A stretch of DNA of 64,000 nucleotides, taken from Podarcis erhardii (Eukaryota). The stretch lies in the NCBI GenBank assembly GCA_964252035.1, contig OZ176206.1. One strand, written 5' to 3'. The notes beneath the pieces are model-generated. The model did not search any database, was not told where the DNA came from, and was given only the letters and a program-made list of their open reading frames with translations. The position numbers were made by a program, and so were the translations under genes. Of the stretch, positions 9,320 to 16,817 are shown in pieces (positions within the stretch are counted from its first letter, which is position 1; every line of letters begins with the position of its first letter).

Positions 9320-9740
9320 TTGCGTGCTGAGGTCCCACAAAACCCCTACCCCAATAACTCAGACATCACACATAATTTTTGTTTGGTTTTTGGCATAATT
9401 TTGGCCACAACTTTATTTATATACAAATTGAGAGTGGTTGCTTAGGCATTGGTATGACTACCTGTCCCCCCCCCGCCTTGGGGGACAGCACTGACTCCTT
9501 AGCCAGTCCCGGAGGAATCATGGTCAGAGTCAGATGGAGCTGCGTAACAGACTCTCACTGCTCCGCGCATGTTCCTTGAAGCTTACGCGGCCCGCACCCT
9601 GCTGTCAGGGTTTGGACGAAGGGGATGGTAAGCTTCAGAATTCCTTTAACGGAATACCCGTCAGCAGCAGCTTTGGAGGGGCAGGCACAGCCAATCCATA
9701 CCCCTCCACCAACCAATTTTTTACCAATGCCTAACCGCCA
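9320..9740 (-). repeat. Ngaro terminal repeat B2 (421 bp)
   Basis: Copy of 10121-10541; separated from A2 by a unique 166-bp spacer (9741-9906). Confidence 0.95.
9412..9417 (-). terminator. Poly(A) signal AATAAA in B2 (second copy in B1 at 10213-10218)
   Basis: AATAAA on the element strand followed by a GT/T-rich stretch. Confidence 0.6.
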
Positions 9741-9906
9741 ACCTTACAAGTTGTGACGATTTGCTAAGCAGTAGGCAAAACCCAAAGGCACGCACTAATC
9801 AGCCAGTTGGGCAAATTCCTACTGGGCCCTCGCACCAATGCGAGCGACCCCATGACAGGCAGAGCAAGGTCAAAGCGCAAGCCCAAATCAAGGGAGGGCG
9901 GGCGGG

Positions 9907-10123
9907 AGATCCGATGTCCACAGCAAAAGAGAAAGAGAAAGCTGTGGACCCTGCTTATATATGGGGACTAAACCCACCCCTAAATTGGCAACATCATTTT
10001 TGCCCCAGTAACAACTTCAACCAATCTGCTCCAGCCCATTGCCCTTAATGGGCTGTTCACTACTGGGTTTTTGTTTGGCCCCATCCGCAACACGTGCTCT
10101 CACTTTTATGAGAACACGCTTTG
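9907..10123 (-). repeat. Ngaro repeat A2 (217 bp)
   Basis: Copy of 16601-16817; overlaps B1 by the TTG at 10121-10123. Confidence 0.95.
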
Positions 10124-10541
10124 CGTGCTGAGGTCCCACAAAACCCCTACCCCAATAACTCAGACATCACACATAATTTTTGTTTGGTTTTTGGCATAAT
10201 TTTGGCCACAACTTTATTTATATACAAATTGAGAGTGGTTGCTTAGGCATTGGTATGACTACCTGTCCCCCCCCCGCCTTGGGGGACAGCACTGACTCCT
10301 TAGCCAGTCCCGGAGGAATCATGGTCAGAGTCAGATGGAGCTGCGTAACAGACTCTCACTGCTTCGCGCATGTTCCTTGAAGCTTACGCGGCCCGCACCC
10401 TGCCGTCAGGGTTTGGACGAAGGGGATGGTAAGCTTCAGAATTCCTTTAACGGAATACCCGTCAGCAGCAGCTTTGGAGGGGCAGGCACAGCCAATCCAT
10501 ACCCCTCCACCAACCAATTTTTTACCAATGCCTAACCGCCA
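10121..10541 (-). repeat. Ngaro repeat B1 (421 bp)
   Basis: Copy of 9320-9740 (offset 801); two substitutions seen. Confidence 0.95.
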
Positions 10542-15100: not shown

Positions 15101-15196
15101 AGGTTGAGGCGAACGCAAGGCCTGCGATGGTCCTTTTATGGGCCGCTTGGGAGTGAGGGCGGGAGCCGACTTCCTTGTCGCCTTCTTCGGGGCCAT
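12065..15196 (-). CDS. Ngaro Gag + reverse transcriptase + RNase H in one 1043-aa frame
   Basis: Zn-finger CWDFNKGACTRQSCKYSHACDKCSGSHSGSTC; RT motifs KCDIESAF, AMPMG, HYLDD (12995-13006); RNase H motifs SDAAG, LEFFP, TDNQ, ADALSR. Confidence 0.93.
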   Translation of the reverse strand: MAPKKATRKSAPALTPKRPIKGPSQALRSPQPGQSLQRIRSMVSSLAGDPVALARMEAELGGLMQRRSTPSTSSATLVPPVDASLPPSSSSEEEEEPLPASGYLPGTPRAQSSEPPVSQVAVPRGRVSARAGAGRKAPARGLLVRGIPAQPAVAGSMNPDNSQVGSFQSLPAIPQPGDASESSVEDSLPIPPKSSSGGHRRRKKSSRRRAKKRRRDTSSSSSGASSQTSSSDEEAPLKLYWGFGETSGLPKWVWERRANSHRARYGAVLDCLDGALVPDVKVSTNSARDIIPGAHLSAKLRSRILDGRYVDIFSLAPPLEGQEPLDKGLPATKKRTLIAKADRTFERWLDSFQVFAGVVASAYPRRSLHLWVYLSIVRSAFTMAGETAALAYDQNFRRRAAKIPTARWDRKDLDVWTTYVAPRIDKKAPDTQKFKFAPAKLGRKPFCWDFNKGACTRQSCKYSHACDKCSGSHSGSTCQSGRRPFRKGGALSSPQSPRHKPLPRELESSVISSLAYTPVKLQPLLSLLESYPDAEAASYLREGFSLGFRIPVVSAPVARNPANQKSVRDMPEVARKKIAKELALGRMAGPFAVPPFPKLHISPLGIVPKKAPGEFRLIHNLSHPRGTSVNDVIPPELCSVRYASLDHAIKMIRKFGAGALLAKCDIESAFRLLPIHPDDFWLLGFQFEGSFYFDKAMPMGCSVACAAFESFSSFLEWALRVKTGLSGVTHYLDDFLVASAGDTGDCVFLLRAFASLTEDLGVPLAAGKTEGPSTQLTYLGILLDTVAQTSSLPPEKITTLRKVIEDMLPLEKVSLRQLQSLLGHLNFACRVVSPGRAFCSRLARLTSGLRAPHHRVRLHSQVRADLAIWLEFLEEFNGVSLWQDTLNLHNDFQVHSDAAGSLGFGLYWDGRWCAERWPPAWRGQAITRDLTFLEFFPIVVAVHLWVARFRDHRVCFWTDNQAVVNVLAKQSSRSPRVSALLRAFVLHCLRFNIVFSARFVPGISNEIADALSRFQMERFRSLVPEARDRPEIFPDHLWNLGRT

Positions 15197-16600
15197 ACCT
15201 GCTGCGGGCTCAGACTAAATCCAAGTAAGGGAGAAACCCAAGAGGTAAGTCAAGGATGAGTAAAAATTAAAATAATAAAATAATAATAATAATAATAATA
15301 ATAATATTACGATACTAACAAAATTAATAAAACAAAAGAAAATTAATGGGTAAGAAGACAAACAACCAGCAGGCCGGGGAGCCAAAGCCGCCCAACGTAT
15401 TCAGGTACTCAGGCAGTGGCGTAATCAATAGAATTACACAGGCAAACCTGAACAGCAAAATCTGAGGTTCCCTGCAATACCGGATTGGCCACTAGAGGCC
15501 GCTGCAGAAAGAAATAGTCACTGCAGAGCAGGCCCCGCAGTTACCAAGGCTGGCCAGCAGAGGCCGCTGGCGCTGTGAAAGTTAGGAGGCAAGATGGCGC
15601 TCCCGCCAAAACTGCCCCAAAATGGAGGCTCCCCTCGAACGCAGCAAGGCCAGGCCAACACTCAGGCCCTATGCTGGAAGGAGCCCCCCCAGCGCCCAAA
15701 AGGAGTCCCAGCGGCGCAGGCCAACGCCCCGCGGCCCGCACAAGCTCCCCCCGGCACCCTTAGGGGCCCAAAATGGACGTATGACCAACGGGGGGGGCGA
15801 GAGGGGCCGCTCCCCCGCCTACAGGCCCCACAGACCCCAAGCGAGGAGGCGGACAATTCCCGCGCCCCGGGGCAGTCTGCGGCTCGGCGCGGCAGCCGGA
15901 TCCGCCGAGCGCGGCCGAAAGCGCTCCCTGTAGGCCGCGGACCAACGCCGCGGCAGCAGCGAGCCCGGGAACCCCCGAGCCTAACAATGAAGCGGCCTAG
16001 GCCGCGCCGCCCCAGCCGCGCCCGAGCAGGCCGCTAGCCACCCCCGCGCCGCAGGCAAGGGCCGACGGCGCCGCGCGGCAGGCCCGGCCGGGCCCAAACC
16101 AGCCGCGGCCGAGCCAAGCGCTCCTCCCCACCCCCACCGGGAAAAACGTGAGTAAGATTCTCCCAGTCAGGCCGCGGGCAGGCCGAAGCCACCCGAAAAT
16201 TGAGTCCGGGGGGGCGGCGGACTGGCCGCGAAGCCGCTGGATGGGGGGGCCCTTGCCGCCGCCAAGCCTGAGACGGCCTAGCAGCCGTAGAACGCGGAGG
16301 GGGGGCGGGGGGGCAGAAGAGGCTAACAGGCCCGGTTGGGCCTAACGCGGTCCCAGCCAGAACCCAGAACCTTCCCAGCCCGGACCACAACCCGGCCGAG
16401 GGCGGGCCGTAGCCAGCCGGGCAGGGAAATCGCCCCCCCTCAATAAAACAGGGGAAAATTAAAGAAGGGGAATTAAATAAATAAAACGAAATTAAGGAAC
16501 GACTTAACCAAGGTAGGCTGGGGATAGAGATAAGAAAGGAAGGAAAGGCAGATCAAAGATCAATACGACCAGGTTTCTCTCGCTGTTTTACTCCGGCAGA

Positions 16601-16817
16601 AGATCCGATGTCCACAGCAAAAGAGAAAGAGAAAGCTGTGGACCCTGCTTATATATGGGGACTAAACCCACCCCTAAATTGGCAACATCATTTTTGCCCC
16701 AGTAACAACTTCAACCAATCTGCTCCAGCCCATTGCCCTTAATGGGCTGTTCACTACTGGGTTTTTGTTTGGCCCCATCCGCAACACGTGCTCTCACTTT
16801 TATGAGAACACGCTTTG
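16601..16817 (-). repeat. Ngaro terminal repeat A1 (217 bp)
   Basis: Matches 9907-10123 with no mismatch seen by eye (offset 6694). Confidence 0.95.
16625..16790 (-). promoter_or_regulatory. Putative Pol II promoter in repeat A (duplicated in A2)
   Basis: TATATAAG (16655-16648), CACCC box (16667-16674), CCAAT motifs (16678-16682, 16715-16719), E-box CACGTG (16785-16790). Confidence 0.65.

Follow-up and report, generated by a model that had tools for sequence, protein, structure and literature searches.

A 64,000-nucleotide (nt) stretch of contig OZ176206.1 from the lizard Podarcis erhardii (assembly GCA_964252035.1), hereafter the window, contains on its minus strand, from 16817 to 9320, a retrotransposon of the Ngaro type, inserted antisense to the host gene PTPRU. 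All element coordinates are positions in this window. We think it probable that the element is a recent, likely polymorphic member of a family that splices a donor within gag to the exon of an SGNH hydrolase and, likely, to that of the tyrosine recombinase (YR), and that likely makes its Gag-Pol protein by +1 ribosomal frameshifting at a UUU_CGN site. The gene is named after a phosphatase-domain stretch at 49122-49550, the best PDB match of which is PTPRU; the two nearby exons are what we take to be its transmembrane and 30-nt exons, and the antisense position between them is as described in an earlier note on this DNA. The features of the locus are as follows.

3240-3378, plus strand: transmembrane exon of PTPRU (host; gene name from the PDB match)
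22173-22202, plus strand: 30-nt exon of PTPRU, bounded by AG and GT (host; gene name from the PDB match)
16815-16817, strand not applicable: TTG crossover core shared with the target
16601-16817, minus strand: A1, a split direct repeat; a TATA-like box lies close to the 3' end, at 16648-16655 (repeat comparison)
15199-16569, minus strand: leader intron, GT at 16569 and AG two bases before the gag ATG (predicted by homology; the homologous join occurs in the spliced DNA copy L080)
12065-15196, minus strand: fused gag-pol open reading frame (ORF), 1044 amino acids from the ATG: Gag with a CCCH zinc finger, reverse transcriptase (RT) plus RNase H
14524-14532, minus strand: gag-internal splice donor CAG/GTGCGT, phase 1, intron start at 14529 (conservation and L080)
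13739-13747, minus strand: CCC_TTT_CGG, likely +1 ribosomal frameshift site of the UUU_CGN type (conservation)
13729-13736, minus strand: G run, one base shorter than in the relatives L001-L003, which sets pol in the gag frame (alignment)
11181-12151, minus strand: YR exon with phase-1 acceptor TTTCAG/AT; the first ATG of the open frame is not before residue 89
10571-11145, minus strand: SGNH hydrolase exon, after a branch point, a pyrimidine tract and phase-1 acceptor CTAG/GT
10121-10541, minus strand: B1 repeat, AATAAA at 10213-10218
9907-10123, minus strand: A2 repeat, second TATA-like box at 9954-9961
9741-9906, minus strand: unique 166-nt spacer (repeat comparison and cross-family conservation)
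9320-9740, minus strand: B2 repeat, AATAAA at 9412-9417

A1 and A2 match at 217 of 217 positions, and B1 and B2 at 419 of 421, with mismatches at 9563/10364 and 9603/10404, each repeat copy carrying one private change; the earlier note had counted the same none and two. The order A1-ORFs-B1-A2-B2 that it gave is also present, except that A2 and B2 are not adjacent: the spacer between them is kept across families in sequence and length (161-180 nt) and is a previously unreported feature of the element. TTG (CAA on the element strand) is common to both element ends and to the B1/A2 junction, which reads CACGC-AAA-GCGTG, with inverted arms flanking the crossover core. Invariant complementary blocks occur in spacer and B (9400-9780): in one case the end of the spacer would pair with the bases after AATAAA, and in the other B is closed; these two long-range helices show almost no covariation and are not claimed here as structures.

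The RT domain matches Pfam RVT_1 (E 1e-10) and has YLDD near 13009; the RNase H motifs D-E-D-D are found at 12511, 12400, 12328 and 12175. YR matches Phage_integrase with E 8e-6, just under the curated cut-off, has R, HxxR, W and Y at 11639, 11297, 11225 and 11198, and its homologues carry names such as integrase or recombinase. The SGNH match is weak (Lipase_GDSL, E 0.008), with GHS, G, N and DxxH at 11116, 11017, 10927 and 10654. These are the motifs that we take to be catalytic, and all four sets are intact in stop-free frames, as had been noticed at the outset.

A methyltransferase domain after RNase H sets DIRS-like and PAT-like elements apart from Ngaro-like ones. The element proteins have no Pfam match to such a domain, and pol ends 36 residues past the last RNase H motif, which makes the element Ngaro-like and not PAT-like. 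Its other characters point the same way: split direct repeats of the form A1...B1-A2-B2, here with the spacer; a gag-like ORF with RT/RNase H and a YR instead of a DDE integrase; YR placed after RT/RNase H with a slight -1 frame overlap and followed by an SGNH ORF; and an insertion site that shares a short core with the element and shows no target-site duplication. In a search of the element for the inverted terminal repeats and internal complementary region of DIRS-like elements only short, chance-level inverted pairs were found. The definitions of position and overlap of YR and of the optional SGNH ORF follow the accessible text of PMC13003380 and PMC9210276. By every feature that can be tested in the sequence the element is a member of Ngaro, the type to which the earlier note had assigned it. 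Two Ngaro-like elements of Xenopus with an SGNH ORF, DIRS-53_XT and DIRS-54_XT, share with it, according to the available sections of PMC9210276, the A1..B1-A2-B2 repeats, the order gag, RT/RNase H, YR, SGNH, the overlapping frames and the lack of a methyltransferase. The lizard element differs in its amniote host, the SGNH form being described there for amphibians, and in its conserved A2-B2 spacer, leader intron, gag donor and UUU_CGN motif, the last three of which those sections do not mention. A literature search, mostly of open-access papers and without supplements, found no paper on lizard Ngaro elements, on splicing of YR retrotransposons or on UUU_CGN in such elements; Repbase notes and supplements may bear on novelty.

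We queried the assembly with the RT, obtaining 2856 candidates, 131 of which were scored. The 79 loci fetched represent 78 elements and fall into two clades, of which the more distant has 67-72% RT identity (L033, the second half of an interrupted copy, is left out of all counts). In 24 of the 78 fetched relatives the repeats are at least 99% identical and the frames open, so that they are as young and intact as the window copy, which is one of many and neither unique nor rare. The other copies are accordingly not all old and degenerate, the finding that would have spoken against the earlier note; its remark that intact amniote examples are little studied agrees with the literature search as regards lizards, but such copies are not rare. 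The closest named homologues are from lacertid lizards, and intact pol homologues are on record across squamates.

The window was compared with contigs from 5 of 24 listed sequencing runs (X1, X4, X5, X6, X11). Over a long stretch the comparison was swamped by a very high-copy short interspersed element at 8815-9162, left of the retrotransposon, and the empty-site joint is absent from that output. In X1, X4, X5 and X11, which bear four species labels, the right-flank contig stops matching exactly at 16815; the non-matching continuations are 161, 181, 181 and 110 letters long, respectively, and these lengths fit the left flank up to the interspersed element. X1, which also holds the single-copy leader of the window with 0 differences in 1043 nt, is the best-matching run and may be the source sample. 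The break at the insertion core points to an empty allele, including under the species label of X1. Across copies the target is R-N-A-A, without duplication; in this comparison the distant clade was not matched by the junction motif, and for the window copy (WIN), L001-L003 and L005 the right flank listed first was a false match. The same contig carries a solo A-spacer-B unit that has 99.6% identity to the window copy and shares its private variants, so the sub-lineage of that copy has inserted at least twice recently. Near-identical repeats, an apparently empty site in four runs and the near-identical solo unit suggest that the window copy was recently inserted and is likely polymorphic, much as the earlier note supposed, and a locus fixed and shared across distant lizards, which it had named as contrary evidence, is not what these runs indicate.

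The relation between the gag and pol frames could be scored in 68 of 79 sequences (11 were unscorable). Pol overlaps the end of gag in the +1 frame in 58 of the 68, is fused to it in nine and lies in the third frame in one, and copies that keep separate frames have a conserved gag tail and stop. About 25 codons upstream of the gag stop, in the zero frame and inside the overlap with the +1 ORF, lies CCC_TTT_CGN. TTTCG is present in 70 of 77 located copies; five of the seven exceptions are CpG-type transitions and two are in damaged copies, and all four bases occur at N. Sequences with an open gag end were used for a codon-column comparison (18 of the 79) and for a tree (52 of the 79), both of which indicate conservation beyond the need of the protein. 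The Phe codon of the motif is TTT in all 18 representatives; seven other conserved Phe columns are about evenly split, and only 3 of 133 conserved columns use a single codon. On the tree, the third base of this Phe codon has 0 changes, versus 5-14 (mean 9.5) at 22 comparable codons, and the preceding Pro changes 2 times versus 5-17. The motif Arg is CGN in 48 of 48 copies. Stops in the +1 frame occur in 1 of 52 windows after the motif versus 138 of 260 before it, no conserved pol Met precedes the first conserved pol motif, and the pol frame of L046 and L069 is closed 5 codons ahead of the TTT_CGN motif. An imprint of the +1 frame, PF[GAVED] 30-40 residues before TP[IV], is seen in Podarcis, Zootoca and Eublepharis records. 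The pattern argues that the family likely makes its RT, as Gag-Pol, by +1 ribosomal frameshifting at UUU_CGN. Rfam returned two chance-level matches only, one of them blv_FSE (E 1.2) on a small hairpin after the motif, with slight covariation.

Ty1 and Ty3, yeast long-terminal-repeat elements with a DDE integrase, have other signal sequences. What they would have in common with the lizard family is synthesis of Gag-Pol via a +1 slip in a retrotransposon (cited in PMC3498833). UUU_CGN itself is the +1 site of influenza A PA-X, shown by mass spectrometry with an efficiency of about 1% (PMC3498833), and has been proposed as the +1 site in plant amalgaviruses (PMC5052127). As far as the accessible text of these papers goes, viral and lizard sites share UUU_CGN in the zero frame with a downstream ORF in +1, the use of all four CGN codons and a constrained preceding codon; the lizard motif differs in that it sits in a chromosomal retrotransposon, is known from conservation and follows CCC where theirs follows UCC.

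Gag and pol form one ORF in the window copy because its G run is one base shorter than in L001-L003, its three nearest relatives. With one G lost just after the slip site, Gag-Pol would be the constitutive product of this copy, with hardly any free Gag made; the copy would likely depend on relatives for Gag, and its spliced YR and SGNH messages would be unaffected. The earlier note called the copy complete and apparently functional, which is borne out by the open frames but not by the fusion, unlike the arrangement in 58 of 68 scored copies, and its autonomy appears doubtful. Fused frames outnumber the other broken frame 9 to 1 and represent about eight independent events (L020 and L022 share one); the excess fits a cis advantage of fused RNAs, and also a deletion bias in base runs.

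Full autonomy of the window copy, either because fused Gag-Pol is sufficient or because the shorter run is normal in its sub-lineage, is the best of the alternatives, though we consider it improbable. All frames are open, synonymous differences to siblings exceed replacements about 2-3:1, and another copy with identical repeats, L031, is fused as well. Across the G run, contigs of X1 and X4 show no net indel relative to the window, the one from X1 otherwise carrying sibling substitutions and the one from X4, under another species label, having 4 differences in 478 nt; the shared run length counts against a one-off lesion or an assembly slip in the window copy. Autonomy is, however, hard to square with the 58 of 68 copies that keep separate frames with a conserved gag tail and stop, and with the need of Gag-type elements for more Gag than Pol. 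Since DIRS-1 proteins work in trans (PMC7192593, accessible part), fused copies can spread without being autonomous.

Neither YR nor SGNH has a conserved start codon in the sequences compared. In-phase acceptors were first predicted from alignments, and the gag donor was then indicated by public gene models; an initial scan for donors under a strict score had given no site in common. Among 79 sequences examined for splice-site conservation, the donor G/GT is present in 73 of 74 located copies. CAG/AT occurs ahead of YR in 78 of 78, and SGNH is preceded in 70 of 70 by a branch point, a pyrimidine tract and an AG of the same phase. In the DNA copy L080, A is followed by a short first exon that runs straight into the start of gag; gag in turn passes at its donor into SGNH, after which comes B. 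Both joins are precise, the element ends are normal, and the 416-codon frame is open. This relative of the window element thus shows splicing of the leader intron and of the intron between gag and SGNH. Six public gene models from Podarcis and Zootoca (P0164, P0166, P0178, P0181, P0182, P0183) join gag to YR at the predicted sites, and one, P0126, joins gag to SGNH; the gag-internal donor is likely also spliced to the YR exon. L081-L083, considered as YR-spliced candidates, are ordinary or rearranged copies.

Splicing could in principle also serve pol, from the gag donor to a phase-1 acceptor TTAG/CT after the gag stop, with CCCTTTCG being some other RNA signal. The window copy and its siblings do have a pyrimidine tract and an AG in the right phase, but this AG is found in only 36 of 75 located copies, many that are young and intact lacking it, while the other acceptors stand at 78 of 78 and 70 of 70, and the open +1 frame from the motif onward would be left unexplained; we regard this route as unlikely. 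Slightly less credit is due to a -1 ribosomal frameshift for YR, which overlaps the end of pol in the -1 frame and was proposed to be so expressed in Ngaro elements by Poulter and Butler 2015 (as quoted in the accessible text of PMC13003380): read by eye, the overlap has no X_XXY_YYZ heptamer in the pol phase, while the acceptor is invariant and its phase fits the donor that is seen to be used for SGNH, and six gene models have the join. Least plausible as the source of the +1 product is polymerase slippage, with a base dropped in G or C runs after the motif and fused copies as reverse-transcribed slipped RNAs: nine of 68 copies are fused versus one in the third frame, mostly through one-base losses in runs, and read contigs carry the shorter run, but the runs are not conserved and are interrupted in most families, whereas TTT_CGN is conserved with a third base as free as in an Arg codon.

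Several observations weigh against frameshifting at UUU_CGN, splicing to YR and recent insertion as set out above. The frameshift is argued from conservation, and its imprint is missing from Anolis, Hemicordylus and most amphibian records, so that UUU_CGN would be a sub-clade feature. The predicted YR join is seen in public gene models; no YR-spliced DNA copy was seen among 150 scored of 528 candidates, and the YR acceptor lies inside the RNase H 'SRFQ' codons, so that protein constraint contributes to its conservation. The empty allele is deduced from the break point and the lengths, and no X1 contig bridges the filled junction; the G-run length in X1 clashes with the longer run in three assembled siblings. 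Read-through of the B1 poly(A) signal by the RNA is also left unaccounted for.

In the scheme that we favour, transcription would start after the TATA-like box near the end of A1, and the 1.4-kilobase leader intron would be removed, as it has been in a relative's spliced DNA copy. The first 222 gag codons, with a basic end resembling a nuclear localization signal, would be spliced in phase to SGNH, as seen in DNA, or to YR, giving predicted fusions of 413 and 545 residues, respectively. Most ribosomes would stop at the gag stop; about 25 codons before it, a few would shift from UUU to UUC and go on into RT-RNase H. According to the established model for the group, complementary DNA would integrate by YR recombination at the B/A junction, at a short target core (here R-N-A-A) and without target duplication.

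The leader intron is CpG-rich (observed/expected 0.82, versus 0.10 in the host intron). The leader at 15250-16560 is 25-30% diverged from those of L001-L003, as against about 1.5% in the ORFs and no difference in A1, which suggests a leader swap between sub-families; the window leader occurs once in the assembly, and contigs bearing three other species labels have it too. Roughly half the copies of the near clade consist of A-ORFs-B only and stop exactly at the end of B1, next to a normal target (L004, L005, L008, L009, L011, L015, L016 and others); 25 copies have A1 but no internal junction, versus 28 with the junction. Solo A-spacer-B units with clean ends (L086-L093) are very common, with 3492 candidates and 8 of 8 checked; such units may derive from a short RNA, as a TATA-like box is present in A2 itself and a poly(A) signal in B2. 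Stand-alone units are known as solo AB repeats of Cafeteria Ngaro (PMC8547959) and as SIRE of VIPER (PMC6681497); compared with what the accessible text of these papers describes, the lizard has thousands of candidates and also many A-ORFs-B copies. L057 has an extra A-spacer-B repeat, L043 rearranged ends, L037 an internal duplication, and L032/L033 a 6-kilobase interruption of YR. Many distant-clade RT matches lie on the 30-megabase contig C19, as may be expected of a repeat-rich chromosome such as a W. Elsewhere in the window, a short palindromic repeat is found at 16900-17040, right of the element, and an open frame at 895-1380 (minus strand) presumably resembles the GIY-YIG end of a Penelope-like element.

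A single insertion in PTPRU is in itself ordinary, and the main value of the locus lies in the expression signals of the family, above all the UUU_CGN site. For the expression of the overlapping, start-less ORFs of tyrosine-recombinase retrotransposons, the printed proposal is a frameshift for YR; this family offers exact sites, where pol would be reached by a frameshift and YR and SGNH by splicing, with the SGNH and leader joins already fixed in DNA. We would give about even chances to the broader view of a vertebrate retrotransposon lineage in which Gag-Pol is made by influenza-type UUU_CGN frameshifting, the recombinase and esterase are spliced to a shared Gag head, and RNAs that have lost one base after the slip site yield too much Pol and are found in excess among new insertions, so that the window copy would be a free-rider. 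The frameshift, if real, would put a recoding signal known from RNA viruses into an animal chromosome; the family is also a young and apparently polymorphic system in an amniote, with dozens of its copies intact.

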